Positions 4,263 to 52,205 of a stretch of 64,000 nt of DNA are shown here, in pieces. The stretch's first letter is position 1; the number at the start of each line of letters is the position of its first letter. The notes under the pieces are model-generated. The model was not told where the DNA came from. It saw nothing but the letters and a program-made list of their open reading frames with translations, and searched no databases. The DNA comes from Ostreococcus lucimarinus (taxonomy: Eukaryota): assembly GCA_000092065.1 (NCBI GenBank), contig CP000582.1; one strand, written 5' to 3'. The translations under genes were made by a program, and so were the position numbers.

Positions 4263-5683
4263 TTAAAACTCGCGATCGGGGAAAAGCGCTGGGGCGATGA
4301 GGCACCACAGGTAAATCGCGCCCGTCGCCCAGACGCTAAAGAATTTCACCCACACGCTCGCCCAGCCGCTGCCGATCGCTTCGGTGTCGTCCTCGTGTCT
4401 GGTGCCCCAACCCGTGAGTAACATTGACGTGTACATCGCGGCTAGGGCAAACATCAAATGGAAAAAGCTATAGTTGTACTTGACTGGACCGGAAGCGTCG
4501 CCTTCGCTCGCTTCCTCTTCGTCGCCGTCGTTGAGCGCCTCGCGAAGCTCGCTCTGAAAACTCTCGTCGACTTCCATGTCCCAAAAGTTGCTCTCCCCGG
4601 CGCGCATGGCGGCGTACACCACCGAGACGAGCGTAAACGCGGTCGTGACTAAGTTTGCCGGTTTCTTCAACTCCTCGTTGGCGTCGATGAAAGAGCGCGG
4701 ACGACAGGCGTACGTCGACGGTTCCGAAGTCAAAGCCGAGTAGCACAAGTACGTGCAGTACAGCGTCACGGCCGCGGACGGTAACAAGCACCCCTCACGC
4801 GCGGCCGGGTGAAGCGTGATGACCGTCAAGACGACGCACAAAACCACCGTGCAAGTAATCATCGCGATGTTTCGATGACACTCTCGATTCGGGGCGTACG
4901 ACTCGTACATCTCCACAAACAACGCCACAGACGTCGCGTACATCGCGAGCGTCGACACCAACAGCCCCGCGACCCAACCCCAATGCTCACCGCTCGCCCA
5001 GGATTCGTTCCACGCGAACGCAAAGTCCAAGACGATGATCATCTGAATCACCAAGAAGAGCCCCGATCCCAGTCGCGCCGCCGCCGCGTACGCCTCCATT
5101 CCCTCATCCGTCGCCCACAGAAAGAAGAACGCGTGCAGCGCGACGAACGCCAGCACCTTCAACATCCAATTCCCTCGATGCAACGCCTTATCGCGAAAAT
5201 CGGAACGATCTTTCGTCCCGATCAACGCCGCGCTCATCGCGAAGAAGAACGTCGACGTCGCGCACGACGCTCGATACACCGCCTGCGTCTTAAACCACGC
5301 CGCGCTCGCGCGTCCGTTCGCCCCGATCCCTGCGCGCGCATCCCACGTTCGATCGTTCGCATCGTCAGTCGCGCGTCACTTTGCGTCGCGCGCGTCCGCG
5401 CCGTTCCCGTCGTCTCGCCGCGCCGAATCTCAATCCAAATCCGTTCCCCTCGCGCCTCGCCTCGCCTCGCCTCGCCGCCGCACGCACAGCTCAACCGCTC
5501 GAGCGCCGTCTCGGAGCCGTAATCGCGCAGCGCCCACTTCAGCGCGACCGCGCACGCGAACATCGCCGCGTGCGTCGCGCGCGCGGGCGGCGACTTTGGC
5601 ATCGCCGCGCACACCGACGACCCGACGCACGACCCCAGGCACGACATCGCGGGCGTCGCGACGCACGCGAGGAGCGATGCCAT
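4263..5683 (-). CDS. serine incorporator (Serinc/TDE1/TMS) family membrane protein; two exons
   Basis: Exon 2 is complement(4263..5329), track ORF 4263..5279, which begins at GTG and aligns to Serinc only from the third TM helix onward (LVIQMIIVLDFAFAWNESW; FFHLMFALAAMYTSMLLTGW; WVKFFSVWATGAIYLWCLIAPAL). The missing Cys-rich N-terminus MASLLACVATPAMSCLGSCVGSSVCAAMPKSPP...ALERLS is in another reverse frame at complement(5488..5683), ATG verified at 5681-5683. Intron complement(5330..5487): donor GTGCGT, branch GCGACTGACGA, acceptor CAG. Phase 1, junction codon TGG. Confidence 0.75.
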
Positions 5684-5806
5684 CGCGCGCGCGTCGACGC
5701 GCGACGCGCGCGCGACGGCCGCGTCGCGCGAAGCGACGTAAAGTGACGCGTCGATTCGTCTCAACGCTAACCGTCGCGTCAGAGCGCGACGACGCGCGCG
5801 CGACGG

Positions 5807-6901
5807 ATGTCGACGCTCGACGCGCTCGAGCGATGCGCGAGAGAAACGCGCGAGTACGTCGGCGCGCGCGTGACGCGCGCGACGTCGCCGCCGAGCGCGC
5901 TGGCGTTCGCGATGGCGCACATCGCGGCGAACGTGCCGCTGTTGACGGCGAACGCGACGACGCACTGGCGCGCGCACGACGCGTGGCGCGCGAACGAGGG
6001 CGTGATGGAGGATTTCGGAGGCCCCGATGCGGTCGTCGAGGTGAACGCGACGCCGAACGGGCGAGGAGACGCGGTGCACAGGGTGGAGAAAGATGGCTGG
6101 GCGCGACTCGGGACGGGGACGCGGTGCGAGACGACGGGACGAGGCGAGACGCGCGACGCGTTCGACGCGTTCGTGGAGCCGGCGAAGAGGGAAATGACGA
6201 TAAAGGAATTGTTTGAATCGCTCGAGGACGGCGCGGGGACGGGGACGGCGTGGTATCTGTCGGGGCAGAACGATAATTTGAGGTCGAGCGAAGCGTTGGC
6301 GCGCGCGGGCGCGCGAAACGACTTCGACGTCCCGTTCGCTCGCGAAGCGTTCGCGAGCGTGGGGAAAGCCGGTCGTGACGGTTTAGGGGAGGCAGTGAAC
6401 CTGTGGATCGGGAACGATGCGTCGCAGACGTCGTATCATCAGGATTTCTATGAGAATATTTACACCGTCGTGCGCGGGACGAAGGTCTTCTCGCTTCGAC
6501 CGCCGTGCGACGTGTTCGACATGCGCGCGACGGAAGCGGTTCGCGGCGTGTTCGAAACCGACGACGCGCTCTCATGGCGAATTAAACTCCGTCCTTCGTT
6601 CGAACCGCGCGTTGTCTGGAGCGCGGTGGACCTCGATCCAGTCACGGGCGAGCCGATTTTCGGCGACGACGACGCGTTACGATACCGTCGACCGCGTCCC
6701 GAACCGTGCTTCGACGTCGAAGTGCGCGCGGGCGAAACACTCTACATCCCCGCGATGTGGTTCCATCGCGTGCGTCAAAAAGGGATCGCGATCGCGGTGA
6801 ATTCGTGGTTTGACATGCATTTCGGCGACCGATACGCGACGCGTCCGCTGTGGGAGCCGTCGCGACGCTCCATGTCAAGTTCTAGCGTAACTCTAGCGTA
6901 A
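5807..6901 (+). CDS. JmjC-domain (cupin) protein, JMJD7-like
   Basis: ATG verified at 5807. JmjC signatures: WYLSGQND, NLWIGNDASQTSYHQDFYENIYTVVRGTKVFSLRPP, GETLYIPAMWFHRV. Confidence 0.8.
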   Translation: MSTLDALERCARETREYVGARVTRATSPPSALAFAMAHIAANVPLLTANATTHWRAHDAWRANEGVMEDFGGPDAVVEVNATPNGRGDAVHRVEKDGWARLGTGTRCETTGRGETRDAFDAFVEPAKREMTIKELFESLEDGAGTGTAWYLSGQNDNLRSSEALARAGARNDFDVPFAREAFASVGKAGRDGLGEAVNLWIGNDASQTSYHQDFYENIYTVVRGTKVFSLRPPCDVFDMRATEAVRGVFETDDALSWRIKLRPSFEPRVVWSAVDLDPVTGEPIFGDDDALRYRRPRPEPCFDVEVRAGETLYIPAMWFHRVRQKGIAIAVNSWFDMHFGDRYATRPLWEPSRRSMSSSSVTLA

Positions 6902-6924
6902 CTCTAGCGTAACTCTAGCGTAAC
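6881..6924. repeat. 4 x 11-bp tandem repeat TCTAGCGTAAC
   Basis: Perfect direct repeat read from the sequence. Each unit carries TAG and TAA. The JmjC stop codon (TAA, 6899-6901) lies inside copy 2. Unit length 11 is not a multiple of 3, so stops occur in all forward frames. Confidence 0.9.
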
Positions 6925-7018
6925 TCCGAACTCCACACCGCGCCTCGTCGGCGTCGCTCGTGAGACGGTAGACGGACGGACGTAGCGACGCACCTCGCGT
7001 CGTCGCTCGCGAGCGACG

Positions 7019-14051: not shown

Positions 14052-14695
14052 ATGGTGGCCAAGGCCCCGGCGAAGCGCAAGCCCGCGGCGAAGAAACCGG
14101 CGGCGAAGAAGAAACCAGCGGCGAAGAAGAAGCCCGCGGTGAAGAAGACGACGGCGACGAAGAAGAAGGCGGCGCCGAAGAAGAAGCCGGCGGGTGCGTA
14201 TACGTGACGCGGCGGTGATCGCGCGACGCGGGGGCGCGCGCGGCGCGGCGCGCTCGACGCGCGACGACGCGCGAAGAAGAATTGTGCGCGAATGCGATCG
14301 CGCGCGAAATTAAGGGATTGCGCGCGCGCGCGAGACGCGCGAGCGAAGGGGGAGAAGAGGGACTGACGACGTGTGATTTGAACGCGACAGCCAAGAAACC
14401 GGCGGCGAAGAAGAAGCCGGCGGCGAAGAAGAAGCCGGCGGCGAAGAAGAAGCCAGCGGGTGCGTGTAGAGGGGGGGCGGCGCGCGACGACGCGGAGGCG
14501 CGAATCGCGCGCGCCAGCTCATCTCGAAATCGCCGCGCGCGAGGAAGAAGAGAGGACTGACGAGACGATGATTTTCGCGCGATCGCAGCCAAGAAGAAGC
14601 CCGCGGCCAAGAAGAAGCCGGCGGCTAAGAAGAAGCCGGCGGCCAAGAAGAAGCCGGCGGCCAAGAAGGCCAAGGCCAAGGCTTCCAAGAAGTGA
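14052..14695 (+). CDS. lysine-rich histone-H1-like protein (KKKPAA repeats, no globular domain); three exons
   Basis: join(14052..14193,14391..14459,14589..14695). Both introns are phase 1 and start GTGCGT, carry GGACTGACGA and end CAG. Both junction codons are GCC. The spliced product is a 105-aa Ala/Lys/Pro repeat protein ending KAKAKASKK. The ORF track shows the exons as separate fragments (13782..14207, 14282..14560) and a long antisense ORF. Confidence 0.7.
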
Positions 14696-15214: not shown

Positions 15215-17221
15215 TCACGACGCGCGCGAAAAGAGAACGCGATGCAAACCCTTAATCTCTCGCACGTCCGCGCGCAAGAGTTCGCGAACGTCATCGTCTG
15301 CGAACACGCTCGGACGCTCCGAACCGCCCGCGCCCTCTCGCCGCTCGAGCTCGCGGAGCGCCTCGGCTATGGCCTCGCCTTTGCTCTCGCCTCGACGCAC
15401 GCGACGGACGTTTGGCGCGCGAACGCCGTGTGTTTTCAAATACACCTCGATCGCTTCGACGTTCGAGTTCCTCGTGATCACGAACGCGCGCGCGTCGTGC
15501 GAGGTAAGCAAGCCCACCAAGTCGGCGTCTCGCGACTTGAGCTCGCACGCCCGGCGCAACCCCGCGGGATCGAGCTCGCGGAAGTTCTTTGGAAGCGGCG
15601 ATGCGCCGGCTTTTGTGGCGCATATCGTGCGGTCGAAATCTAAGAAGACGCAGTACGCGTCGAGTGTTTCCACGAGCTGGACGACGTCCTCGGCATCGCC
15701 GCGTGATATGCCGCAAATTTCGCAAGAGGCCTCGCGCTCGCACTTGAGGCACCGCCTCGAGTGCCGGCACCACGCCTCGCGAAGACACGAAGAAGTCACG
15801 GGACAGCGCCCTTCGTTTCGCGCGGTTTCTTCGCACACCATGCACGTGTTCGCCGTGACCCACAAATTTGAGAACGAGCGCTCGCACGTCCCGCAACGAT
15901 GGGTGCCGGTGACGTGGAGTAAGCGCCCGTCGCTCGCGCCGGCGAGGTCGCTCGAGGCGACCGCCGCCGTCATCCCCGCGTAGAATTTTTGCGTCGTCTG
16001 GGTGTACTGATTGATGATCTTGGCCAGCGCGAAATCATCGGGCACGAACGACGTGGTATTAATACTATCTCCCGAAGCGAACAAAACCTTCGTGGGCTCA
16101 TCGAGGATCTTCTGGATCCACTTTGTCGTCTCTCGAAGCGCCGGCGCCGCCCCCTCGAGGGCGTTCGCCCCTCGGTCGACCACGCACGCGCGTTGAAGTT
16201 TGTCCAACGCTTCGCGCGATGGAGGTATTTTCGCCCCGCTCGTGTCGAAGTCGTCGCGTAAGATATCGTCCGGTGTCGCGTGATCTTTGCGAAGCCTCGC
16301 GGCGAGCGTCTCAGAGTTTTGGGCGATTTCATTCGCGAAGCGTAAAAACTCCCTCAGTTCGGCTCGAATCCAGAGCGCCTTCGTCGCCCCTCGAGCGATG
16401 AGAGAAAGCTCGATAAATCGAACGTAATGCGCCGGGAGATTGAGCTCTTCGCGCACGCGAGTCATGATATGCTCGAAATCTTTCGTCAGCGCAGGCGTCA
16501 TCGCCCGCGCGTCCATCGCCGCCGGCGGCGCGACGGTCAAATCTTTCAATGATTCCTCGACGGCGTCCGATGATGACTCAGCGCCGCCGATTCGAGCGGC
16601 ATCGGCGGCGGCTTTGCCGACGTATCCGTGCGTCACCAACGACCGTGGCATCGACGCCAACCGACGCGGACGACTCAAATTTGGATGTCTCGGCACGCAG
16701 CATATCTGCTTCGTGAAAACGCGCCCATCGAAGATCGCTTTGGCGGCGCCCAAACACCGCCCCCTCGCCGTGCAAATCTCGCGATATCTCGCCGCGTCGA
16801 CGTACCCGGAGGCTTGCCCAAAGTCTCCTCTATAAAATGTCATCAATCGTCGCAAACGCATCTCCAACACCTCTATCTCGTATTGCGAATGTAACAACAC
16901 CTTCTTTAGGTTCACGCAATTCCTCCTCGTCCCGAACGCATCGCTCACCGCGCCCGCGCGGTCGATGAATTCCGCCACCGCGCCGCCGAGCCGCGAACCG
17001 AAGACGCCGACGACGTCTCTTCGCACTAAATCCCACCTTCCTTGCTCAAAAGTCAAGATATTTCTCGCGTCAACGTCCAGCACACACTGTCCAGGTATCG
17101 CATCGCGCGTCTCTCCGCCGTAAAGCGCCCTCACGCGCCGTTCGAACGTCTCCGCGTCCTCGTCGCCGCGACGCGCCGCGAGCGCGTTCGCGGCGTCTGC
17201 GAGCGTCGTCGAGACCACCAT
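15215..17221 (-). CDS. hypothetical protein with Cys-rich module and C-terminal HAD-superfamily hydrolase-like domain
   Basis: Track ORF 15215..17425 starts at GTG. First ATG is at 17219-17221 (verified), MVVSTTLADA. C-terminal region has HRCGTCERSF...CMVCEE...CLKCERE...CEICG, then FLDFDRTI (DxDxT motif I), VITRNS, GESKG and FADDD consistent with HAD motifs II-IV. Confidence 0.55.
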   Translation of the reverse strand: MVVSTTLADAANALAARRGDEDAETFERRVRALYGGETRDAIPGQCVLDVDARNILTFEQGRWDLVRRDVVGVFGSRLGGAVAEFIDRAGAVSDAFGTRRNCVNLKKVLLHSQYEIEVLEMRLRRLMTFYRGDFGQASGYVDAARYREICTARGRCLGAAKAIFDGRVFTKQICCVPRHPNLSRPRRLASMPRSLVTHGYVGKAAADAARIGGAESSSDAVEESLKDLTVAPPAAMDARAMTPALTKDFEHIMTRVREELNLPAHYVRFIELSLIARGATKALWIRAELREFLRFANEIAQNSETLAARLRKDHATPDDILRDDFDTSGAKIPPSREALDKLQRACVVDRGANALEGAAPALRETTKWIQKILDEPTKVLFASGDSINTTSFVPDDFALAKIINQYTQTTQKFYAGMTAAVASSDLAGASDGRLLHVTGTHRCGTCERSFSNLWVTANTCMVCEETARNEGRCPVTSSCLREAWCRHSRRCLKCEREASCEICGISRGDAEDVVQLVETLDAYCVFLDFDRTICATKAGASPLPKNFRELDPAGLRRACELKSRDADLVGLLTSHDARAFVITRNSNVEAIEVYLKTHGVRAPNVRRVRRGESKGEAIAEALRELERREGAGGSERPSVFADDDVRELLRADVREIKGLHRVLFSRAS

Positions 17222-17933
17222 CGATGACGTCGTCCGCGCGCACCACCGCGCGCGCGTCTCGCGCCGCCGAGCGTCGACTCGAGCGCAATCACCCACGACG
17301 CGCGCGCGCGCGTCGCTCGTTCGCGCGCTCGCGTCGCGCGCGCGCCTCCGGACCGCCGCTTTCGTCGCCGCGCGTCGTCGCGCGTCGTCGTCGACGCCGA
17401 GACGTTCGATTTCGCGCGCATCCACCGCGCCGACGACGCGATCTCACCGCCCGCGCTCGCCGCGCAGACGCGCAAACGCGCCCCTTCTTTTCGTCCCGCG
17501 CGCCTCCCGCGCCCGGCGTCCCGCGCCCGCGTCGCGCACTCGCGCCGCGCGCCGCGCGCGACGCGCGCGCGTCGATCCCCTCGCGCGCGCGCGCGTCCGA
17601 CCGACCGCCTCCACGTATTCCGCGCGCGAAACGCCCATCAAAGTGGAATCAGAACCGACGAACGCCGATCGTCTCGCGCGATGGCGTTCGCGACGCGCCG
17701 AGTACGGCGTTCGCGACGCGCGTCGCGCGCTAAATTCGCGAGTCCCGCGCGTCGAGTCGCGACCGGTCGCGGGGGCGCGGGCCCCGCGACTCTTTGAATT
17801 CTTAGACGTTTCAGACCTTGAATACGAGATCATCGATCGTTCGGGACTCAACAGCGTGGGACTCCCCATCGGCGCGATTCAAATTCGCCCGTTGGCCGCG
17901 CTTCGGTCCCCTCGCGTCACAGCGCGACGCGAC

Positions 17934-26839: not shown

Positions 26840-27706
26840 TTACGGCGTTCGGCATAGCCAGAAATGTATGAATGGCTGCGCGACGACGACGGCGAGCAAC
26901 ACGTAGTTTTGTGACATGCTCTGCGAATAACCGCTGTGTCTCGCCTCGCTGAAGATGATTCGCTTCAAAGTTTTCGCCATGAACACCGCGTTGCACAGCG
27001 CAGACCAAATGAGGAAAAACCAAAACACGTACGTCTTGTTGAACATTTTCGACATGAGCGTCATCGAGCCGTACGTAAAGGTGTACCCGACGTACGCCGC
27101 GACGTCGAGAATCGGCGCCGACACGATGTGGTTCGCCGAGCTCGTCGAACGCAGCGCCACCCAAATAAACGCCGACTCGCCCGCCCACAGCAGCCCGCTC
27201 CACCACGCGTGCGTCGCGAGCGCCTCGGGCGTAAACGAACCGCTCTTGGACGAAAACACTTCGCGAATCGAAGCCGTGAGCACGTACGTCCAGAACGCCA
27301 TGAGTGGAATGTACAAATCCGGCGCGTTGATATCGTTCCGCGGCGGTTTGTACGCCGTGCCTCCCGCCACGCTCTCGGGCAATCGCGCCCACGAACCTTT
27401 ATGCAAAAACGGACACAACACCAATCGCATCTTGTGAAACACGTACGACTCGGTGACGTCGAAGTACGCCCGCATCGACGCCGTGCTGAAATACTTGGCG
27501 TAATTCGAACTCACGAACGACGCGCCGTCGTTCAAAAACTTCCCTCCGTACACCCCCAATCCCGCCGCGGCTAAGCTCCGCGGACTCGTCGGCGCGCCGA
27601 ACCCCCCGCCGAACCCTCCGCCGAACCCTCCGCCCTGACTCGAGCTCGCCTCGCGCCCCCCCATCCCGTCGTACGCGCCCGGCGCGCGCCCGTACCCCCC
27701 GTCCAT
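26840..27706 (-). CDS. YIF1: Yif1 (Yip1-interacting factor) family Golgi membrane protein
   Basis: GFGGGFGGGFG N-terminus, YGGKFLNDGASFVSSNYAKYF, YFDVTESYVFHKMRLVLCPF and four or five C-terminal TM helices typical of Yif1/Hrf1. Stop TAA verified at 26840-26842. Confidence 0.75.
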   Translation of the reverse strand: MDGGYGRAPGAYDGMGGREASSSQGGGFGGGFGGGFGAPTSPRSLAAAGLGVYGGKFLNDGASFVSSNYAKYFSTASMRAYFDVTESYVFHKMRLVLCPFLHKGSWARLPESVAGGTAYKPPRNDINAPDLYIPLMAFWTYVLTASIREVFSSKSGSFTPEALATHAWWSGLLWAGESAFIWVALRSTSSANHIVSAPILDVAAYVGYTFTYGSMTLMSKMFNKTYVFWFFLIWSALCNAVFMAKTLKRIIFSEARHSGYSQSMSQNYVLLAVVVAQPFIHFWLCRTP

Positions 27707-30390: not shown

Positions 30391-31106
30391 ATGCCGCCCA
30401 AACGCAAAGCCGCCGCGACGGACGCGAAACCATCATCGGTGCGCGCGCGCGACGCGCGATTCGCGCCGATCGACGCGCCGTACGCGTCGCGCGACGCCGA
30501 AATGGACGAATTCGCGACTGACGACAAACCATCATTTCCGACGATTCGCAGGCGAAACGCGCGAAGAAAGCGCCGAAATCCACCGAAAAGGCTGCGGACG
30601 CGAGTGCGGACGACGCAGCCGTCGAGGGCGACGCCGATGACGACGCGGAGAACGAGCAAGGCGGTGAAAACGATGACGGTGAGATGGTGGACGGCGAGGA
30701 TCTCGACCACCGGCGGCGCGACGACGACGCCTCGATCGAGGCGCAGCGCGATGCCGATCGAGCGCGCATGCTGGAACTCTTGAAAACGTTTACACCGAGT
30801 CAGATGGAGCGATACGAGTGCTTTCGCAGGAGTAATCTGAGTAAAACGATGTTGCGAAGGTTGTTCAAAGCGGCGAGCGGGGTGACGCTCAACGCGAACG
30901 GATTGATCATATTAGCGGGGGTGTCGAAGATGTTCGTCGGAGAAATGGTGGAGACGGCGAGGGAGATCATGAAATCGCGAGGGATGAACGAGTACGAGGA
31001 GATACGACCGGAACACTTGCGAGAGGCGGCGGCTGTGATCGACGCGAAGGATGGGCTGTTGCGACGCAAGCGACAAAAGTCGTTGTTCACGCGAGGTTAC
31101 GCGTAG
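30391..31106 (+). CDS. TAF11: TFIID subunit TAF11; two exons
   Basis: Proposed join(30391..30438,30552..31106). Histone-fold region FTPSQMERYECFRRSNLSKTMLRRLFKAASGVTLNANGLIILAGVSKMFVGEMVETAREIM matches TAF11 ([57 protein letters not shown]). The histone-fold frame is open upstream to 30522 with no ATG before 30684. An ATG at 30391 in another frame gives MPPKRKAAATDAKPSS, followed by GTGCGCGCGC, GCGACTGACGAC and CAG at 30549-30551. The phase-0 junction gives ...KPSS/AKRAKKAPKS. The alternative start is the internal ATG 30684. Confidence 0.75.
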
Positions 31107-37643: not shown

Positions 37644-40600
37644 CTACTCTAGGGATCTCATAGCCTCCTTCGCCAGGGCGTACGTCTTGTCCCACTTCTC
37701 TTGCGCCGCCGCGGCTTCGTCGGCGGCGATTTTGGCGCGCGCGAGGGCGTCTTCGCGCTCCACGAGCGGTACGCTCGACACGGCGTCTTGAAGCGTCTTT
37801 GCGCGCGCGTGAGCGTCTTCGGCGAGCCTGTACGCTTTTTTGGCGGCTTTTAAAAGCTTCTGCACGCGCTTTTCAGCTTGCTCTTGCTTTGCCTTGACCA
37901 TTTCAGCTTGCGCACGCTCGCGCTCTCGCAGCGCCTCTGCGCGCGACGCCGCGGCCAATGCCGCTTCTTCCTCGCGCTTCGCCGCCGCAGCGGCGGCGAC
38001 GCGGCGCTGTTCCTGCTCCGCAGCCGCGATGAGACGTTGTCGCTGCTCCTCCTCCGCCGCGACGCGACGACGTTCCTCGGCTTCGGCTTCGAGTCGCGTT
38101 GCTTCCAAGCGAGCACGCTCTGCTTCTTCGGCCTCGGCTCGTAAACGTGCTGATTCGACGGCGGCGATTCGTAAACGCTCCGCTTCTTCGAGCTCTCGCT
38201 CCTTTGCTCGCGCTAAGGCCTCTTCGGCTTCGGCGACGCGCGCGCGTTCCGCCGCCTCGGCTTCGGCTCGCAAACGCGCCGCCTCTTCCTCTTCGGCGCG
38301 TTGAGCCGCCACTGCTTCGGCCTCAATCTGCGCTTTCAAAGCTTGCTGATTCGAATTTACCGCTTCGCGCGCCTCGGCCACAGCGATTTCCGCCATCTTG
38401 CGCTCCTCTTCGACGGCGCGCAAGGCCAACACTCGTTGCTCTTCTGCGCGCTTTTGCGCGCTTTCGGCTTCAGCGCGCGATTGTTCCGCCTCTTTGACTT
38501 CAGCCTTGACGCGCTCGAGCTCATCTTCGAGCGCTAATCGTCTCGACTCTGCTTCGTTCCGAAGTCTTCCAGCCTCGGTCGCGGCTTCCTGGAACTTTAT
38601 TGATTCATTACGACGAAACGCGCGTTCCTCTTCAGCGAAAGCGAGGCGAGTCAAGAGTTTTTGCCGCTCCTCGCGCGCGGCGTCCAAAGCTTGTTTGAGC
38701 TCATCTCGCGCAGTCACGAGAGCATCGACATCGATTTCGTCACCAGTATCAACAGCGTTGGATATATCGACGTCTAAAGTCGTCGTGCGATTCTTGTACT
38801 CGGACATTTCGAGTTCCAGCGCGTCGAGCGCCTCGCGCGCTTGCGTCAGAGCGGCGTTGCTCTCCGACAACTCTGTGGCCGTGCGCACGACCTCCTTCAT
38901 GCACTGCTCTTGCGATTCGAGCATATCCTGTTCCATGGTTTCGAGCGCTACTTTCGTCAACTCGTGCTCCTCGCGAGTCAACTTGAGCGTTTGCTCCAGC
39001 TGTGTCGCGAGCGTCGAATTTCCTTCAAGCTGCGATTGAAGCGCCTTGGTTTCCCCGTCGAACGCCATCTTTTGCTCACTCACTACAGCGCTCACATGCG
39101 CGGTGGAAACGACGATGTACTCCGATAGCGCGGCTTCCGCACGATTTAACTGCGTTAACAGCTTGCCGTGTTCGTTCTCCAATTGCGTCACTTTGGCGCT
39201 CGTTTCGCGTAAAGACGCTTGGCGCGCGCGTTCAAATTTGTCGGCTTCGCTCTGCGCCTCGATTTGTGCCTTGCGCAATTCGTCGAGGGCGGCATCTCGG
39301 GCATTCTTGGCTTCGTCTGATGCCGCCGCTGCGTCCTCGGCACGGCGTTTGCTCGTCTCCAATTCTTTTTGCAGCACAGCGAGCTTTCGCGCGAATTCGT
39401 CTTCGCCGAGCGAGCTGGCGGATTCCATCTCCTCTGCCCGCGCTAAAGCATCGCGCAACTTCGTTTCACGATCAATAAGCTCTTTTGAAAGCACATCAAG
39501 ATCAATCTCTGAAGTCGAGAGTCGTCGCTCGAGCTCACCCAGTCGTTGTTCCTTTGAGGCGAGCGTCTCCGTGACACGTCGCGTTTCCTCGCGAAGGCGA
39601 TCGCGCTCCTCCGCGGCGTCGAGCTCGGCGGACTTGGATGCGCTCAGCTCACTCAACTGTCGATTCAAGCGATCGACTGTGTTCGAAAGGTTATCAACTT
39701 TTTCTTGAAGCGTTCTTTTGTTCGCCTCGGCGTCATCGAGCGCGGCGCTCAAATCTTCGTCCACCGCGCCACCGCACGACGATTGAGAAGTCAGCGCGGC
39801 GTCAAGCGCTGTCTTCGCTTGTTCCAAGTCTGTGGCGATGGCCAAGCTCTCAGTTTCTATCGCCGCGCGCGCCTTCGCAGCGTCGGCGAGCTGTCCGCGA
39901 AGCGCTTTCCACACGGCGTCACGATCTGCCACCGCCGCGGCTTCTCGCGCGTTGGCTTCGCTCGCCTCGGTTCGCGCCTCGTCTAACTTGCGCCTCATCT
40001 TCGCAGCAGCCTTTGCGTCTTCTCTCGCGCGATCGATTTCCTCGTTTGCGTCGCGCAGCCGCTGTTCCATCTCCGCGAGACGCCGTTGCAAAGTCTCGAA
40101 GTCACTCGACGATTCGAGGAGCGAACGATCGCCGTCGTACATCCATCGGCGCGCGCTCGACAAACCAAAGTCACGAAATTGCACCCCGTTCGAACTTCCC
40201 GGCGCGAGCGAATTCAACCCAGACGTGCGCATGACGAACGGTGCCACCACCGCGGTGGCACCCACGGCGAGCGCGGCGACCCACTTCGCGGAAATCGCCG
40301 CCGCGCTTCGCGCCGCCGGCGCCGCCACCGCGGCGGCGGCGACTCTATTCGCCCGGCGCGGATCCACGACGACACCGCGCTCTCCCGACTTTGGCTCATC
40401 CTCCGCGTGCACGCACACACGTGCACTCGCACTCACACCGACCACGGTCTTCGTCGCAGCTTTCGACGGCGCGTCCTCCTCTTCCTCTTCCTCTTCCTCA
40501 TTCTCGCTCGACGTCGTCGTCTCGTCTTCTTCGTCCTCTTCCTCGTCTTCCGCGCCGTCCGCGTCCCACGCCCGTTCGTCGATCCGATGCTCGCCGCGCG

Positions 40601-41117
40601 CGCGATTCCCCACGTCCCGCACCCACGACGGCGCTCGCAGCGCGTCGACGTACGCCCGCGTGTACGCCGCCCGCGTCTCGCGTTCGTCCTCATCCTCCGC
40701 GCGCCGCGTCGTCTCGTCCGCGTCCTCGTCCGCGTCCTCGTCCTCGTCCGCCGCGCGCGCGCTTCTTCGCGCGATACTTTTTCGCGCGTCCTCGCTCGCC
40801 GTCGCGCGCGCGTCGTCGCGCGCGTACTCTCGCCACACCACCGGCGCGTCCGTCGCGCGCGTCGCCTCGTCGCGTCGCGCGCGTCGCGCCGTTCGCGTCG
40901 CGACGACGGCGCGCCACGACGCCGGCGCCGGCGACGTCGACGTCGACGTCGACGTCGACGTCGACGCGCGCGTCGCGTCTCGCGCGTCGCGCCGCGCGCG
41001 GGCGCGCCGCGTCCCCATCGCGCGCGTGTGCGGGCAACGGTCGGGCGGGCGCGCGCGCGTTTTCGACGTCGCGCGCGTGCGTCGCGTGTCCACGTATTCG
41101 CGTCCGCGGAGGCCCAT
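37644..41117 (-). CDS. giant coiled-coil protein (about 1000 aa of heptad repeats) with N-terminal hydrophobic anchor
   Basis: Stop TAG verified at 37644-37646. Continuous Ala/Glu/Arg/Leu-rich coiled coil from about residue 330 to the C-terminus. Upstream of it lie WVAALAVGATAVVAPFVM and an acidic DEEEDEEDE block. Start is uncertain: candidate CATs at 41115-41117 and 41307-41309; the track ORF top at 41336 is GTG. The N-terminal 5' region contains GACGTC and 24-bp tandem repeats. Confidence 0.6.
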   Translation of the reverse strand: MGLRGREYVDTRRTRATSKTRARPPDRCPHTRAMGTRRARARRDARDATRASTSTSTSTSTSPAPASWRAVVATRTARRARRDEATRATDAPVVWREYARDDARATASEDARKSIARRSARAADEDEDADEDADETTRRAEDEDERETRAAYTRAYVDALRAPSWVRDVGNRARGEHRIDERAWDADGAEDEEEDEEDETTTSSENEEEEEEEEDAPSKAATKTVVGVSASARVCVHAEDEPKSGERGVVVDPRRANRVAAAAVAAPAARSAAAISAKWVAALAVGATAVVAPFVMRTSGLNSLAPGSSNGVQFRDFGLSSARRWMYDGDRSLLESSSDFETLQRRLAEMEQRLRDANEEIDRAREDAKAAAKMRRKLDEARTEASEANAREAAAVADRDAVWKALRGQLADAAKARAAIETESLAIATDLEQAKTALDAALTSQSSCGGAVDEDLSAALDDAEANKRTLQEKVDNLSNTVDRLNRQLSELSASKSAELDAAEERDRLREETRRVTETLASKEQRLGELERRLSTSEIDLDVLSKELIDRETKLRDALARAEEMESASSLGEDEFARKLAVLQKELETSKRRAEDAAAASDEAKNARDAALDELRKAQIEAQSEADKFERARQASLRETSAKVTQLENEHGKLLTQLNRAEAALSEYIVVSTAHVSAVVSEQKMAFDGETKALQSQLEGNSTLATQLEQTLKLTREEHELTKVALETMEQDMLESQEQCMKEVVRTATELSESNAALTQAREALDALELEMSEYKNRTTTLDVDISNAVDTGDEIDVDALVTARDELKQALDAAREERQKLLTRLAFAEEERAFRRNESIKFQEAATEAGRLRNEAESRRLALEDELERVKAEVKEAEQSRAEAESAQKRAEEQRVLALRAVEEERKMAEIAVAEAREAVNSNQQALKAQIEAEAVAAQRAEEEEAARLRAEAEAAERARVAEAEEALARAKERELEEAERLRIAAVESARLRAEAEEAERARLEATRLEAEAEERRRVAAEEEQRQRLIAAAEQEQRRVAAAAAAKREEEAALAAASRAEALRERERAQAEMVKAKQEQAEKRVQKLLKAAKKAYRLAEDAHARAKTLQDAVSSVPLVEREDALARAKIAADEAAAAQEKWDKTYALAKEAMRSLE

Positions 41118-41744
41118 GATCACGACGCGCGAGGGCGCGGACGCGACGCGCGCGCGGCATGGGGTCAAATCTCGAGTCACGATCGGTCGATCGCAGGCGG
41201 TCGGTCGCCGCGGTCTGGCGGTCGGTCGCCGTGGTCTGGCGGTCGGTCGCCCCGCCCCGCGTCGTCGTCGTCGCCCGCACCGCACTGCCGCACTCTCGCG
41301 TCGAACCATGGTCGCGCTCGCGCTCACGCAAATCACCGTCGCCCGTCGATCCGCGCTCAGTCGCGATGTGCGAGGTAAGTTTCGCGTTGGATCGGGCGCG
41401 CCGACGACGCGCGCGCGCGCCGCGTCGCGTCGCGTCGACGCGAGCAGTCGCGACGCGCGAATCGCGTCGCGTGGGATACGCGGTGGATACGACGCATCGG
41501 AATGATGCGCGAGGGCGCCGAACGCGCGAGGGCGCGGACGCGACGCGCGCGTGGAAACGTCGTGCGGAATACGGAGGATGCGCGCGTCGCGGACGGGACG
41601 CGGACGGCGCGTCGCGCGCGCGGCGACGGCGACGAGTCGGCGTCGATCGCGCGGAGGCCGATCGCGGGTTCGGTTCGAACGACGCGCGCGAGGGGGTCGG
41701 GGCTGGGTCGGGACTCGTGGATTGGGCGCGACCGAAGCGGGACG

Positions 41745-42169
41745 ATGGATGCTGCGATCGAAGCGCGCGATAGAAGTGCGCGCGGAAGACTGACTGGAGC
41801 TTTGTCGTTTGCTTTCGCTCGCGCGTAGGTCGCAAGACCGTCAAGGCTCGCGCCGCCGTCAAGGTGGCGGCGTCGTCCGACTTGAAGTTTGACGACGACT
41901 GGAAGAAGTCCTCCGTCCCGGTGCACCTCGCGTCCTTGTTCGGCTGGGTCGTCCCGTCCGCGTCGCCGTGCCCGGCGTTCGAGAACAACGCGTCTTTGTT
42001 CCAGGTGTTCAGCGATCGCATCGGCGCCAACTTGGCCAACTTCCCGCAAGGTCCGGCCGCCGACGACAAGATTTGGTTGTACATGCTCACGTGGCACATG
42101 GGGTTGTTCGCGTGCATGATGTTCGGGCAAATCGGCGTGCAAGCGCGCAAGCAAGGTTACTTCAACTAA
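41745..42169 (+). CDS. psaO: photosystem I subunit O (PsaO) precursor; two exons with a 53-nt intron
   Basis: Proposed join(41745..41775,41829..42169). Mature part FDDDWKKSSVPVHLASLFGWVVPSASP...IGANLANFPQGPAADDKIWLYMLTWHMGLFACMMFGQIGVQARKQGYF matches the PsaO pattern FDxxW...GW..PS...IG..LAHFP..PA...W...TWH.GLF...FGQIG...R..YF. Track ORF 41864 starts at GTG and the frame stays open back to 41828. ATG 41745 is followed by GTGCGCGCGG at 41776, AGACTGACTGG and TAG at 41826-41828. Phase 1, junction codon AGT. Gives a transit-peptide-like MDAAIEARDRSRKTVKARAAVKVAA. Confidence 0.7.
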
Positions 42170-43664: not shown

Positions 43665-44639
43665 ATGTCCATCGCCGCGTCCTCGTCGCGGCTGTCCACC
43701 GCGGACGCGATGAAGTGGGCGTCCAACTTTGTGAGCTCGGTGGCGATCGTGATGGTGAATAAACAGCTCATGGGAGCGTCTGGATTGGCGTTTCAGTACG
43801 CGACGACGCTGTGCGGGATGCACTTCCTGTGCACGATGAGCGTGCGGTGGTGTCGACCGCGCGGGGCGGCGGCGGCGCGCGCGGAGGCCGCGAAGGGCGG
43901 CCGCGAGCTGCCGCAAAAGAAACTGCTCGCCTTCGTCGCCGTTGCGTCGACGAGCATCATATCGCTTAACTTGTCGCTGATGTTGAATCACGTCGGGTTT
44001 TATCAGCTCGCCAAGCTGTTGCAAATTCCCGCGGTGTGCCTGATCGAGGTGGCGTTCTTCGGGCGAAAGGTTTCTTGGGCGCTCGCGCGCGCCATCGGAG
44101 TGGTTATGTTCGGCGTCGGTATCGCGACGTTGCAGGAAACGACGATGAACTTTTGGGGAACCATCGTGGCCGCGATCGCGGTGTTGTCCACGAGCGCGCA
44201 GCAAATCCTCGTCAGTCGATTACAGAGCGAATATTCAATCAGTAGTAACGATTTACTCGGGCGAACGGCGCCGCTCATGGCCTTGGCCATGCTCACCGTC
44301 GGCCCGTTTCTCGATCAAATATTGACTGGAAGCTTTATCACGGACTATTATTGGACCGGTGAGTCGGTGATGTTCCTGTCGGCGTCGTGTTTGCTGGCGA
44401 TTTGGGTGAACATTTCGCAGTACATGTGCATTGGCACTTTCAGCGCGTTGTCTTTTCAAGTCATCGGCCACGTCAAAACGGTGTTCATCTTCTTCTTCGG
44501 CTGGCTCTTGTTCGACATTCCCGTGACTTGGAACAACGTCATCGGTGGGTTAGTGGCTATCGCGGGGATATCGTATTACTCCCACATCGCCTCGCTGGAA
44601 AAAGAGAACGCGGCGCAGACGAGACGACCGAGCGTGTGA
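43665..44639 (+). CDS. SLC35/TPT-family nucleotide-sugar or sugar-phosphate transporter
   Basis: Track ORF 43287 overlaps the PIPK gene; ATG 43665 (verified) gives MSIAASSSRLSTADAMKWASNFVSSVAIVMVNKQLM. About ten TM helices, NKxL and FQVIGHVKTV motifs typical of TPT/NST carriers. Confidence 0.75.
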   Translation: MSIAASSSRLSTADAMKWASNFVSSVAIVMVNKQLMGASGLAFQYATTLCGMHFLCTMSVRWCRPRGAAAARAEAAKGGRELPQKKLLAFVAVASTSIISLNLSLMLNHVGFYQLAKLLQIPAVCLIEVAFFGRKVSWALARAIGVVMFGVGIATLQETTMNFWGTIVAAIAVLSTSAQQILVSRLQSEYSISSNDLLGRTAPLMALAMLTVGPFLDQILTGSFITDYYWTGESVMFLSASCLLAIWVNISQYMCIGTFSALSFQVIGHVKTVFIFFFGWLLFDIPVTWNNVIGGLVAIAGISYYSHIASLEKENAAQTRRPSV

Positions 44640-49278: not shown

Positions 49279-50888
49279 ATGGCGAGGGACGCGCGTCGGA
49301 CGAGCTCGCGGCTGAGCGGACAGGGCGCGCGCGCGCCCGACGCGGCGACGGGGACGAAGACGACGCGGGCGTCGACGCGGGTTCAATCGACGACGGCGAC
49401 GGACGCGAGTCGCGACGACGCCGGTCGCGACGAGCACGGCGGTGCGGCGGGAGAGGATGGAACGGTGGTGAACGTTCCGAGACGCGCGCGAACGGGTGCG
49501 TGCGCGCGCGCGCGCGCTCGAGATGCTTCGACGACGACGCGACGCGAGAATCGGCGCGAGCGGCGACTGACGACGACGATTTTTACGTACGACGAATAGC
49601 GACTCGGCGGAGACTGCGAAAAAGCGATCCGGCCGTCGGAGAGGGGGGTGGTGATGGCGACGAAGGGGCGATAGGGATTGGTGGCGCCAGCGCCGGCGGT
49701 GAGGCGCGCGATGGAGCGAAGACGGCGGAGAAGAAGCGAGCGGACGCTCGAGACGGTAGAGGCGGCGCGCGCGCCGGCGCCAAGCGACGCGAGGCGGAAA
49801 AGAAGTCGACGGCGACGACGGTGAAACCAAGAAGTAGGAAAAATGGAGGCGTCAACACGAAGGAACGCGAAATCGCGGAGGCATTGTTCGATCTCGCCAC
49901 GCTCGCTGCGGACGTAGACAGAGAGACGGAGGCGTCGGCGGGCGAGAAGAACGGGAAGCGAAAACGCAGCCGAACGACGAAGAAAGTAGCGGGCGCGATG
50001 TTTACGGCAACGACGACAACGACGACGAATGGGGGGCTCACGAACGCGAGCGCGGGTACGGGATACGGGATGCACGCGGCTGCCGGTTTCGGCGCCGGCT
50101 TGGGACTGCAGTTTTCTTCGGCGTTTCCGCCGCCGCCCGTCGGATACTTCGGCGGATCGCACGGCGTGAATCCATACGGAATTTCCTTACCTCGACCGAA
50201 AAACGCCGCTTTGCACGTTTACATTTCTCATTTCATCGATTACACGCAGCAAGTGGTGCGTCAGACGGCGCCGGCGCTGGACGCCGGAGTCGACGACGTC
50301 GCGCGCGACACGTCGCAGGCGGGTGATCCGAGCACGTCCACCGCGCACGCACGCTTTCCAGGCGCTTTCTGTGGTCCGTTCCCACCGCTCATGAACCCGC
50401 ACGTAATGGCTGCATTACTTTCCACGCAGCCGGTGATGGCGGGCGTCGGGGGCGGCGACGGCGGCGGCGGCGGCGGCGGCGGTGGAGGAGGAGGAGGAGG
50501 AGGAGGAGGAGGAGGAGCGCCGGATCCGCAGCAAGCGCAACAGCAATTTCAACTGTTGAATATGATGATGCGGCAAACCGCGGCGTTTCCGATGTTTGGT
50601 GCGGGATTTCCCGCACCTCCAGGCGCGTCGACCGCTGGTGACGTGATGGGCGTGCCGGTGTTTCCTCCCGTGGGAGACAACCCCATGATGATGGCGATGA
50701 TGGGCGCGTCGATGCCGCCTCACGTGTTGGAGGCGATGAACGCGATGGCGCAGCAACAACAGCTACAGCAGCAACACGACCAAATTCAAGCGCCTGTGGG
50801 TGATAAGCTGCCTGCGGCTGCGGCTGCGGCTGCGGCTGCGGCTGCGGAAGTCAAGGTTGAACCGCCCGTCGCCGCGGCGCTGTCGTGA
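49279..50888 (+). CDS. hypothetical low-complexity (Gly/Ala/Gln/Met/Pro-rich) protein, possibly two exons
   Basis: Track ORF 49233..50888. Downstream part has EREIAEALFDLATLAAD, GKRKRSRTTKK, poly-T, poly-G (15 x GGN), poly-Q and poly-A runs. Possible intron 49496..49600 (GTGCGTGCGCGC donor, GGCGACTGACGACG branch, TAG acceptor), with exon 1 from ATG 49279 in the matching phase. Exon 1 is weakly supported because its sequence is low-complexity. Confidence 0.4.
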
Positions 50889-51146
50889 GCTGCGAGCGCC
50901 GAATGTATTTTCACGCGGTACGAACGAACGAACGATGAGCATGTATATTGAGCAAACCTTAGTTCAGCATTACTACTAGAGCGAAACGCGCGATATCGAT
51001 ATAATTACACCACTCTGTAGACCACCCAAAGGGACAAACGGCCCGTCCTCCTCCTTCGCCGCAGGCTAGGTTTTAGCTTCGGGTCTTTTCGTCGCCCGAC
51101 CCATCCGCCGTCGCGTCATACCGCGCCGCCGTACGCGACGACGACG

Positions 51147-52205
51147 ATGATCGCCCCCCAAGCGCAGCTCACGATGCGCGCGTCTTTGGCGCCGCGCCCT
51201 TGCTCGCAAACCACCACCAACGCGCGCTCGCAACCGTCGCGCGGCGCCCTTCAAGTCGTCGGCGCGGCGACCAAGGCGAAGAAGAATCGCGACCTCGAGC
51301 GATTGCGCGAGCTCGCGAGCGCGGAAGAGACGTTTTTGGTGGCTGGGTTCAACTACAAGGGGTTGACGGTACGTGTGACAGCGGCGCACGCGCGATCCTA
51401 TCGCGTCGCGCGGTCGAGGACGCGCGAAGACGCGTTCGGATGACGCCGCGCGCGACGACGACGTCGTCGCGGGTTATCGAGAGGGATGCCCTTTAGCGCG
51501 CGTTCGTGGCGCCGCGACGACGCCGACGGCGTTCAAGACGAAAGCGTCGCGATAAATAAAATCGCCACGCCCTTTGGTGCCCCGTTCGCCGGCGTAAGAG
51601 CGTCGAGGCGCGCGCAAAGGCGCGGGGCGCGTCGACGATGGGGCTCGCAGGGTTTTAGGGCTAGGTCGCGGGCGTGCGGGCGTCTCGCCGAGGCCGAGGC
51701 CGAGTATTGGGCGCGTTGAGAGGTCGAAGACTGACGGAAATGCGCTCGTTTCGATGAACAGGTCAAGGACATGATCACGTTTCGCCGAGCTTTGCCGGAA
51801 GGAAGCCACATCATGGTTGCCAAGAACACGCTCTTGCGCAAGGCGTTGGAAGGCACGGCGTTTGAGCCCCTCTCCGAGTGCTCGACTGGGATGAACGCGT
51901 GGGTTTTTGTGGATGAAAACGTTGCGCCGACGATGAAAGCGGTGAAGGCGCTCACCAAGGTCTGGAACAAGGCTGGTAAGGAGGTTGCGTTCACGGGTGC
52001 GTGCATGGACGGTCAATTCATCGCCGCGAACAAGATTGAGCCGCTCGAAAACTTGCCGACGAAGATTGATCTCATCACCAAAATTGCGGTCGGTATCAAG
52101 CAAGTGCCGACTAAGCTCGCGCGTGGTACCAAGGGTAATGCCAACAAGCTTGGTTACGCGGCGAAGGCGATCGCTGAAGGTAAGAGCGATCTTATCCAAG
52201 CGTAG
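51147..52205 (+). CDS. rpl10: organellar (bacterial-type) ribosomal protein uL10 precursor; two exons
   Basis: join(51147..51368,51762..52205). Exon 1 (ATG verified) is a transit-peptide-like MIAPQAQLTMRASLAPRPCSQ...FLVAGFNYKGLT, followed by GTACGTGTGACAG. Branch GAAGACTGACGG at about 51729, acceptor CAG at 51759-51761. Exon 2 starts VKDMITFRRALPEGSHIMVAKNTLLRKALEGTAFEPL. The spliced junction KGLT/VKDMITFRRA..MVAKNTLLRKALEGT reproduces E. coli L10 RGVTVDKMTELRKAG..RVVRNTLLRRAVEGT. The track splits it into 51147..51443 and 51771..52205. Confidence 0.8.

Follow-up and report, generated by a model that had tools for sequence, protein, structure and literature searches.

Nine introns with near-invariant splice signals in a GC-rich, intron-poor region of the Ostreococcus lucimarinus genome

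In a 64-kb stretch of the O. lucimarinus CCE9901 genome (the window; 64,000 nucleotides of an 895,087-bp chromosome, identified by exact GenBank protein matches), we found nine introns, distributed over eight of about 35 genes, whose donor and branch signals are nearly uniform. All have independent support, which comes from RNA contigs, continuity of Pfam matches, conservation of the intron position in other Ostreococcus, indels confined to introns, and reference gene models. This evidence supports the view that the nine are real, rare spliceosomal introns with unusually strict common signals, and we are highly confident that they belong to the ordinary U2-type spliceosomal introns of this green alga (Mamiellophyceae), whose genome is GC-rich and poor in introns.

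The splice grammar itself is already known. EST-confirmed O. lucimarinus introns were reported to prefer GTGCGTG donors, the branch motif GACTGACG and CGCAG acceptors (Irimia & Roy 2008, PLoS Genet 4:e1000148, PMC2483917), and the introns described here do not differ from them in any essential way, except that those of TAF11 and Spc7/KNL1 are missing from the GenBank gene models. The finding is correct and, as a result in print for O. lucimarinus since 2008, ordinary. Outside chromosome 2, 66.5% of the confirmed introns in that study have GACTGACG and 87% have ACTGAC, and the intron-rich part of chromosome 2 has no branch signal (PMC2483917). By synteny with O. tauri chromosome 2, the window itself appears to belong to chromosome 2, in a GC-rich, intron-poor part; its GC content is 62%, and ranges from 55% to 71% among 2-kb bins. 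Because it lies in such a part, it behaves as the ‘non-chromosome 2’ class of PMC2483917.

Splice signals in the window

A reading made from the sequence alone had proposed eight introns, each with a donor, a branch-like motif and a terminal CAG or TAG, and these elements are indeed present in every interval that it listed. Seven of the eight introns are correct as delimited, save that the intron of a low-complexity (LC) gene ends at 49599 and not 49600, because its TAG occupies 49597-49599. For the eighth, in PsaO, the interval 41776..41828 was right in its branch motif and acceptor, but its donor was misplaced; the true one is GTAAGT at 41375. All other ACTGACG matches had been described as coding and lacking an acceptor, yet the minus-strand match at 27894-27900 serves as the branch motif in YIF1, whose intron is the ninth of the set. 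It was reliance on the grammar that led both to the wrong PsaO donor and to the omission of the YIF1 intron.

Table 1. Introns of the window and the one GACTGAC match outside them. Lower-case letters are the last exon nucleotides.
Feature	Position	Strand	Length (nt)	Phase	Exon end	Donor	Branch	3′ end	Branch A to 3′ splice site (nt)	Exon 1
Serinc	5330..5487	-	158	1	gct	GTGCGTGCG	GCGACTGACGAT	GCGCAG	35	5488..5683
‘H1-like’ (selenoprotein), intron 1	14194..14390	+	197	1	cgg	GTGCGTAT	GGGACTGACGAC	GACAG	24	
‘H1-like’ (selenoprotein), intron 2	14460..14588	+	129	1	cgg	GTGCGTGT	AGGACTGACGAG	TCGCAG	28	
Spc7/KNL1	17997..18184	+	188	0	tcg	GTGCGCGC	GAGACTGACGGA	GACAG	43	17934..17996
YIF1	27863..28008	-	146	0	cag	GTGCGCGC	ACGACTGACGAG	GCGCAG	33	28009..28041
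TAF11	30439..30551	+	113	0	tcg	GTGCGCGC	GCGACTGACGAC	TTCGCAG	30	30391..30438
PsaO, corrected	41375..41828	+	454	1	gag	GTAAGTTT	AAGACTGACTGG	CGTAG	35	41308..41374
Low-complexity (LC) gene	49496..49599	+	104	1	cgg	GTGCGTGC	GCGACTGACGAC	AATAG	29	49279..49495
uL10 (plastid ribosomal protein)	51369..51761	+	393	0	acg	GTACGTGT	AAGACTGACGGA	AACAG	27	51147..51368
GACTGAC outside introns: antisense within TPT transporter coding sequence (only non-intronic match)	44210..44217	-								

The strict donor GTGCG[TC] that had been claimed for the set is present in seven of the nine introns, the others being uL10 (GTACGT) and PsaO (GTAAGT); GT[G/A]CG[T/C] describes eight. Position +7 is G in seven introns, and position -1 is G in eight. 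GACTGAC occurs in all nine and is followed by G in eight; the extended motif GACTGACG is likewise found in eight, PsaO being the exception with GACTGACT. The branch had been placed 30-40 nt from the acceptor, but the measured range for the branch A is 24-43 nt (median 30), with 23-42 nt between the end of CTGAC and the 3′ splice site. From the end of ACTGAC to the AG, the distance is 21-40 nt, and all introns except that of KNL1 (40) lie within 20-35 nt, where PMC2483917 describes a broad peak of branch-to-AG distances at approximately 20-35 nt. Four introns end in CGCAG. The pyrimidine content of the intron tails is 28-65%, intron lengths are 104-454 nt, GC content is 65-71%, and the introns are located near the 5′ end of the coding sequence, with 33-222 nt of coding sequence before the donor.

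Since GTGCGY, ACTGAC and YAG are frequent in DNA of 62% GC, the modules could be accidental co-occurrences in or between single-exon genes. Their raw numbers look much like this: the window has 15 ACTGACG (9.8 expected), 10 GACTGAC on both strands (8.3 expected) and 175 GTGCGY (199 expected), as well as 10 loose modules of donor, ACTGAC and YAG (6.2 ± 2.5 in shuffled sequences). Because neither the counts nor the loose module exceed the shuffle expectation in GC-rich DNA, the motifs alone prove nothing. Accidental modules also exist, as one at 53510-53606 (minus strand), at the end of a desaturase gene, is unspliced in RNA contig L005, and the GTGCGC at 41776 previously taken for the PsaO donor is accidental. 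The placement of the branch motif, however, is well above chance, with nine of 17 ACTGAC matches lying in sense orientation in the 1,882 nt of intron, or 1.5% of strand-specific positions. In addition, a coding signal extending at least 45 codons 5′ of the first ATG with a score of at least 7 is found in six intron genes and in no other gene. The recommendation to use GACTGAC as an intron finder holds within the window, where nine of its ten matches lie in sense within supported introns and all nine introns are found, but genome-wide it is weaker.

Evidence for splicing at individual loci

Removal from mRNA is observed directly for uL10 and TAF11, each with five Logan contigs from which the intron, and nothing else, is absent; the RNA origin of these contigs is inferred from this exact loss. 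The uL10 contigs (L005-L009) lack exactly 51369..51761. Positions 2-99 of Pfam Ribosomal_L10 span the uL10 junction, and GenBank XP_001416282.1 has the identical splice. Five different runs gave the TAF11 contigs (L020-L024), in which 30439..30551 is precisely excised and which encode the spliced protein, and orthologous introns are present in L025, L026 and L028, from other Ostreococcus. The GenBank model of TAF11 (XP_001416275.1; 140 aa from the ATG at 30684) contains neither the 5′ exon nor the intron.

For PsaO, splicing is supported at the protein level. The product of the corrected model, with its GTAAGT donor, is identical to GenBank XP_001416278.1, and its N-terminus is also found in a transcriptome-derived protein (P0038) and in O. 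tauri (P0048). At the matching site, O. tauri PsaO has a 377-nt intron of the form GTGCGC ... GACTGACG ... CAG.

The expectation that splicing would restore homology was borne out for Serinc as well as uL10, in both of which the Pfam match runs through the junction. The Serinc intron has a length of the form 3n+2, and exon 1 starts with an ATG at 5683; the spliced product (420 aa) gives a single Pfam Serinc match covering positions 2-434 of 434, and coding signal extends 45 codons 5′ of the first ATG of exon 2. The YIF1 intron was found by a scan for donor-branch-acceptor modules. Splicing joins the frames of exon 1 and exon 2 (26840..27862, minus strand), the product matches Pfam YIF1, and coding signal extends 62 codons 5′ of the first ATG of exon 2. 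At the matching site, L025 and L028 have an intron with GACTGAC, and L026 has one with GACTAACG.

In Spc7/KNL1, two other species (L026 and L029) retain both the exon-1 peptide (MS.P.KEN ... VKTPSS) and the intron at its position, each with a GT[AG]CGT donor and GACTGACG. GenBank XP_001416270.1 begins at the ATG at 18362, without exon 1 and the intron, and no RNA contig across this intron was found. The gene previously called ‘H1-like’ is a selenoprotein gene, probably SelH. Its intron 1 is closed in all three reading frames; a GTGCGT donor stands at the matching site in the ortholog from L028, another Ostreococcus species, and environmental contigs L036 and L037 also contain this intron. At the site of intron 2, the L028 ortholog has an intron of the form GTACGT ... 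AAGACTGACGAT ... TAG. In the LC gene, coding signal extends 256 codons 5′ of the first ATG of exon 2; its exon 1, for which neither RNA nor cross-species evidence was found, is the least secure of the set.

Intron bodies are under relaxed constraint, with the signals spared. In the LC intron, an internal 2-nt GC indel is segregating (three of 12 environmental contigs), and in a 1.1-kb region around uL10 all three SNPs and an 8-nt indel are intronic and outside the splice signals. Frameshifting indels are tolerated only inside introns, which, like the exact loss of the uL10 and TAF11 introns from RNA contigs, the Pfam continuity over two junctions (Serinc and uL10), the two introns backed by reference models (uL10 and PsaO) and the matching signals in orthologous introns of two to four other species, argues against chance co-occurrence. 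That explanation is already refuted for uL10, TAF11 and PsaO, and for the set as a whole we consider its probability close to negligible.

Conservation, origin and turnover of the introns

Six of the nine introns share their position with one to three other Ostreococcus species. Among the orthologous introns, a donor could be read in 12, always GTGCG[TC] or GTACGT, and ACT[G/A]AC is retained in ten of the 11 with a readable 3′ end, at 22-51 nt from the 3′ splice site where measured. Their lengths vary, and their bodies cannot be aligned.

A family of mobile introns, such as the introner elements of Micromonas, could also produce stereotyped ends, in which case the common motifs would reflect descent by transposition. 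Several observations fit this idea. The sequence-only reading had pointed to a 14-mer, TCATCGGTGCGCGC, common to the TAF11 and KNL1 donors, and it does occur exactly twice in the window, at 17991 and 30433. Micromonas introners (IE-A to IE-D) resemble the present introns in their strong, stereotyped signals, and those of Micromonas commoda IE-C contain the extended motif GACTGACG (PMC3879977). Moreover, the two introns of the selenoprotein gene are alike over approximately 50 nt at their 3′ ends. Introners, however, are multi-copy, alignable over their full length and lineage-specific, whereas the window introns have only signals in common and have conserved positions. The repeat family that had been suggested is not supported: within the 64-kb window, pairs of introns have nothing more in common than low-complexity (GC)n or (CGA)n runs no longer than 35 nt, and such runs match coding and intergenic DNA throughout the window as well. 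The shortest intron has 104 nt and the longest 454 nt. KNL1 and TAF11 orthologs do not have the exonic portion of the 14-mer in common, and local tandem duplication of a unit made up of a Lys-rich exon and an intron explains why the two selenoprotein-gene introns are alike. Finally, the introns are old, since they occupy the same positions in Ostreococcus species whose coding DNA is only about 75% identical. An origin of these introns as introner copies is therefore extremely unlikely.

With ordinary spliceosomal introns as the preferred reading, two further points can be taken together. Motif-guided reading may recover short 5′ exons and introns that are absent from the O. lucimarinus annotation, as RNA contigs indicate for TAF11 and conservation in two species for Spc7/KNL1, and natural O. 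lucimarinus-like populations may vary in the presence of intron 2 of the selenoprotein (SelH-like) gene. We offer this joint reading tentatively, as a serious possibility that falls a little short of being probable. The environmental assemblies L036 and L037, which are independent of each other, both lack intron 2 and exon 2 of the selenoprotein gene, 198 nt in total, and the final ~50 nt of intron 2 are similar to the end of intron 1. Unequal recombination between tandem copies of the exon-intron unit might have added or removed the intron along with the 69-nt Lys-rich exon. If so, this intron-poor genome would provide a live example of how segmental duplication or deletion turns introns over.

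Recognition of the signals and related intron classes

General knowledge of the spliceosome suggests how such introns could be recognized. A standard U1 snRNA would bind the last exonic G followed by GT[G/A]CG[T/C]G, pairing at +1, +2, +5 and +6, with a wobble at +3 and a mismatch at +4. The branch site GACUGACG would pair with the GUAGUA box of U2, leaving the second A bulged as the putative branch point, and the acceptor would be the next usable YAG 24-43 nt downstream, often CGCAG. As most of the introns lack a polypyrimidine tract, recognition may rely, as it does in budding yeast, on a strong donor and a strong branch site.

The mismatch of GTGCGT with standard U1 at +4 could instead point to dedicated or co-evolved machinery, either with altered U1 and U2 pairing regions or as a second spliceosome that serves these introns and not those with weak signals in the atypical half of chromosome 2, a possibility raised by Irimia & Roy (PMC2483917). 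Against this, snRNAs are reported to be single-copy in O. tauri (cited in PMC2483917), and each genome of five Mamiellales has a single strong U1 candidate, with a standard pairing region (bioRxiv 10.1101/2022.06.08.495308). The variant donors GTAAGT and GTACGT are also functional alternatives in one and the same gene across species; the donor of PsaO, for example, is GTAAGT in O. lucimarinus but GTGCGC in O. tauri. No snRNA genes were found in the 64-kb window. We regard altered machinery as very unlikely.

Two other intron classes were considered and rejected. In U12-type introns, those of the minor spliceosome, the donor is [AG]TATCCTT and the branch site, TCCTTAAC, precedes the acceptor by 10-15 nt. 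These motifs are found in none of the nine introns. The low-GC outlier introns of chromosome 2 are 40-65 nt long, with a weak donor and branch (PMC2367439, PMC2483917), whereas the window introns are longer (Table 1), GC-rich and strong in their signals.

Among known systems, the canonical introns of Micromonas, a sister genus, have the same donor, with a preference for AG before GTGCGT, and an NCTGAC branch motif, and some of their positions recur from one species to another (Verhelst et al. 2013, PMC3879977); their branch motif lies 43-52 bp from the acceptor, compared with 24-43 nt in the O. lucimarinus window. Introns of budding yeast and of other intron-poor eukaryotes are similar in being few and biased toward the 5′ end, with a near-invariant donor and branch and a weak or absent polypyrimidine tract, a pattern of convergence described by Irimia & Roy (PMC2483917). 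The signals themselves differ, as budding yeast has GTATGT and TACTAAC, in contrast to GTGCGT and an ACTGAC in place of ACTAAC in the window; one Ostreococcus ortholog, that of YIF1 in L026, uses GACTAACG.

Grounds for recognising introns in GC-rich DNA

The sequence-only reading listed eight introns that share a donor GTGCG[TC] (GTACGT in uL10), a branch motif GACTGACG and a CAG or TAG acceptor, and it interpreted them as real spliceosomal introns with a strict shared grammar. This interpretation is right, and was already published (PMC2483917). The starts, ends and branch-like motif of the eight intervals were found as described, except that the interval in the low-complexity (LC) gene ends at 49599, not 49600. 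Overall, most of the observation stands: one boundary is wrong, one intron was missed, and the range of branch distances was overstated.

The motif set alone, at the GC content of this window (62%), is no more than chance gives in GC-rich DNA. There are 15 copies of ACTGACG against 9.8 expected, 10 of GACTGAC against 8.3, and 175 of GTGCGY against 199. A loose module, defined as ACTGAC with a donor no more than 600 nt before it and YAG 15-50 nt after it, occurs 10 times, compared with 6.2 ± 2.5 in dinucleotide shuffles. Since neither the single motifs nor the module rise above shuffle expectation, we rejected motif counts as proof of introns. An apparent avoidance of GACTGAC in exons was likewise not robust: the one match outside introns compares with about 8 in dinucleotide shuffles, but only about 3 under Markov models of order 3/4. 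As the motifs are not statistically rare here, it takes reading frames, transcript data and conservation to make the case for introns.

Introns in the window (window coordinates) and their principal support
Gene	Interval	Strand	Support or signals
uL10	51369..51761	+	RNA contigs, Pfam, GenBank model
TAF11	30439..30551	+	RNA contigs
PsaO (corrected)	41375..41828	+	GTAAGT donor
Serinc	complement 5330..5487	-	Pfam continuity
Spc7/KNL1	17997..18184	+	conservation of exon 1 and position
LC gene	49496..49599	+	intronic indel
YIF1 (ninth intron)	exon 1 28041..28009; intron 28008..27863; exon 2 27862..26840	-	GTGCGC, GACTGACG, GCGCAG
'H1-like' gene	14194..14390 and 14460..14588	+	introns at both places in L028, a contig of another Ostreococcus species

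Evidence for individual introns

Transcripts and reference proteins bear on three genes. Spliced uL10 is encoded by five Logan contigs, L005-L009, which stem from five runs and are read as RNA-derived; they align to the window without exactly the intron, and the spliced product (221 aa) is present in a public protein collection. The splice is identical in GenBank XP_001416282.1, and a continuous Pfam Ribosomal_L10 match spans the junction, so the restored homology that the sequence-only reading described for uL10 holds. In a population sample of the surrounding 1.1 kb, the variation consists of three SNPs and one 8-nt indel, all within the intron body; exons and splice signals have zero variants. 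The reference strain carries 8 additional nucleotides (GCGGGCGT) at window 51668-51675, relative to 11 of 11 environmental contigs. For TAF11, exactly the intron is missing from five encoding contigs (L020-L024), and a Logan protein of 230 aa holds the entire spliced product at 100% identity. The GenBank model XP_001416275.1 (140 aa) starts at the internal ATG 30684 and so misses the intron together with the short exon before it. Two of the intron-less contigs, L005 (50818-54202) and L020 (30059-32514), span two or three adjacent genes, some on opposite strands, which suggests either overlapping transcripts in a compact genome or merging of adjacent transcripts by the assembler.

The PsaO donor had been placed at 41776, which is wrong. 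The N-terminus of a transcriptome-derived protein (P0038) and of the O. tauri protein is encoded at 41308..41374 and is followed directly by GTAAGT; the protein that results from joining 41374 to 41829, 135 aa long, is the same as GenBank XP_001416278.1. Within the true intron, the GTGCGC at 41776 is a chance match. O. tauri PsaO has an intron at the matching place, with a GTGCGC donor and GACTGACG. The PsaO start codon (window 41308, +) adjoins the first ATG (41309, -) of a minus-strand open frame, 37644..41840; this gene, of 1,200 aa, probably has its true start further inside.

The remaining introns are supported by frames, conservation or indels. Homology is also restored across the Serinc junction, as had been claimed, with a single-stretch Pfam Serinc match over positions 2-434 of 434; a PDB structure alignment begins past the junction and adds no support. 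In Spc7/KNL1, the exon-1 peptide MS.P.KEN...VKTPSS, the adjoining donor and the GACTGACG branch motif are kept in two other Ostreococcus species (contigs L026 and L029). The GenBank protein XP_001416270.1 (1074 aa) starts at the internal ATG 18362, without the first exon and intron. The segments missing from the GenBank models are window 17934-18184 for Spc7/KNL1 and 30391-30551 for TAF11. In the LC gene, 3 of 12 environmental contigs have a 2-nt deletion; in coding sequence this would be a frameshift, which supports an intron; synteny with O. tauri stops short of this gene.

A ninth intron lies in YIF1. Its branch motif is the ACTGACG at 27894-27900 (-), which had been dismissed as lying within intact coding sequence. 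The spliced product matches Pfam YIF1, coding signal extends 62 codons 5' of exon 2's first ATG, and the intron position is common to three other species, one of which carries GACTAACG. Exact-sequence look-ups in the protein collection gave no match for four spliced products (Serinc, YIF1, LC and Lys-rich).

A codon-usage scan for open frames whose coding signal reaches 45 codons or more beyond the first ATG on its 5' side, and scores at least 7, returned six frames, all of them intron genes (Serinc, KNL1, YIF1, TAF11, PsaO and LC). Frame 15215..17443 (-) has a long open stretch 5' of its ATG and a weak score of 2.2. The scan and the split-gene checks gave no sign of further introns in the window. 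The leftover ACTGAC matches lie in sense orientation in the Spc7 exon (19634, 20956), antisense within coding sequence (21068, 29893, 34622, 44216), in an intergenic position (48504), and in the last codons of a desaturase gene (53554), where RNA contig L005 is unspliced; the ACTGACG at 53548, in these last codons, was rejected as a split-gene signal because the RNA contig crosses it unspliced.

Two further split-gene candidates were rejected. ORF 28126..28806 (+), with SSRP1 just downstream, is a separate small conserved gene with its own stop, ending in ...ELN in all four species. It looks like a LYR-motif protein; Pfam gave no match at E <= 0.01. Kinase ORF 7019..8389 matches half of Pfam Pkinase and, weakly, the atypical-kinase families ABC1, Kdo and APH, and thus looks like a small atypical kinase, not a split gene.

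A probable selenoprotein gene

Both intron places of the 'H1-like' gene (window 14052-15110, +) are occupied by introns in L028. The apparent stop of this gene is TGA 14693-14695, past which 71 conserved codons (GVFLRS...CRGFEVFVDD...SSLCA) continue in frame to TAG 14909-14911. In L028 (2355-2570), the TGA is kept, as is the frame after it, with amino-acid identity of 73%. The 3'UTR has a hairpin (about 15024-15110) that looks like a SECIS element; its architecture is shared with the L028 species and its helix sequence differs, as expected of such an element. The gene is thus probably a SelH-like selenoprotein gene, and SelH is among the O. lucimarinus selenoproteins listed by Lobanov 2007 (PMC2375036). 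Pfam and Rfam searches of the gene gave no Rdx and no SECIS match. Its transcript contigs all end within the Lys-rich repeat, short of the introns.

Window 14391-14588 (exon 2 and the second intron, 198 nt) is missing from two independent environmental assemblies (L036 and L037) that are about 99% identical to the window. Of two readings, an intron presence/absence variant is likelier than an assembly collapse; the apparent breakpoints, within Lys-rich repeats, are not identical in the two assemblies. The two introns have about 50 nt in common at the 3' end, and the exons on their flanks are Lys-rich and repeated. As a presence/absence variant, the absence suggests that an intron may have been gained or lost through unequal recombination or tandem duplication.

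Splice signals and their relation to published introns

The donor consensus of the nine introns is G|GT[G7/A2][C8/A1]G[T6/C3]G. GACTGAC is present in all nine, followed by G in eight, and the 3' ends are CGCAG (4), ACAG (3) or TAG (2). The branch A lies 24-43 nt (median 30) from the 3' splice site; measured from the end of CTGAC the distance is 23-42 nt, so the range of 30-40 nt proposed before was overstated. Pyrimidine content between branch motif and acceptor is 28-65%, and thus most of the introns have no polypyrimidine tract. Lengths range from 104 to 454 nt, and each of the nine introns sits towards the 5' end of its gene's coding sequence, of which 33-222 nt precede the donor.

We compared orthologous introns from up to four other Ostreococcus lineages, which are about 75% identical in coding DNA. 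Every readable donor (12/12) is GTGCG[TC] or GTACGT, and ACT[G/A]AC precedes the acceptor in 10 of the 11 introns with a readable 3' end, by 22-51 nt where measured. Lengths vary and bodies are not alignable; in a four-species alignment of TAF11 introns, nothing aligned outside the signals. Excision is precise in the RNA contigs, and signals are conserved and intron bodies relaxed. In the orthologous TAF11 intron of a lower-GC species (L025, 10046-10162), the donor is GTACGT and CACAG comes after a T-rich tract. Its last 60 nt contain no CT[GA]A[CT] motif, so the strict grammar is not universal within Ostreococcus.

The sequence-only reading asked whether the introns cluster as a repeat family. 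Intron pairs scored high against mononucleotide shuffles, but comparisons between introns and with the rest of the window found only (GC)n/(CGA)n runs, none longer than 35 nt; such runs are present all over the window, and we rejected a repeat family. The sole, local exception is the shared 3' ends of the two 'H1-like' introns. The 14-mer reported at the KNL1 and TAF11 donors is indeed present, and confined to those two sites in the window. It consists of the donor consensus plus TCATCG, a hexamer that is common in the window (121 copies), and we regard it as coincidence because the orthologs lack it.

The same GTGCGTG/GACTGACG/CGCAG grammar is found in published O. lucimarinus introns. In 319 EST-confirmed introns outside chromosome 2, Irimia & Roy 2008 (PMC2483917) reported a 5' consensus GTGCGTG, ACTGAC in 87%, GACTGACG in 66.5%, a preference for CGCAG and a branch-to-AG distance of about 20-35 nt; splice signals were weak in that half of chromosome 2 which is rich in introns. 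Canonical Micromonas introns have AG|GTGCGT and NCTGAC, and GACTGACG was reported in Micromonas IE-C introners (Verhelst et al. 2013, PMC3879977). Five Mamiellales have a standard U1 pairing region (Roy & Bowser 2022, bioRxiv 10.1101/2022.06.08.495308), and thus no compensating change in U1. Going by general knowledge of the spliceosome, U1 would pair with GUGCGU despite the +4 mismatch, U2 GUAGUA would pair with ACUGAC with the branch A bulged out, and the first suitable YAG downstream would serve as acceptor, in a yeast-like, branch-site-driven recognition without a polypyrimidine tract. Rfam and tRNA scans of the window gave zero matches, hence no snRNA.

The finding is a correct rediscovery: the grammar, the chromosome 2 contrast and the U1 result are all published, so the annotation corrections are new only in a minor way and the grammar is not new. 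In this window it flagged two or three 5' exons missed by the 2007 GenBank models, that of TAF11 being backed by RNA contigs; the wrong PsaO donor and the overlooked YIF1 intron mark the limit of motif-driven annotation. Seven window-encoded proteins are identical letter for letter to GenBank entries of O. lucimarinus CCE9901 (XP_001416275.1, XP_001416267.1, XP_001416516.1, XP_001416278.1, XP_001416270.1, XP_001416520.1 and XP_001416513.1). The window probably belongs to that part of O. lucimarinus chromosome 2 which is GC-rich and poor in introns, and the syntenic region of O. tauri is on chromosome 2 (CAID01000002.2, 1,027,467-1,048,254).
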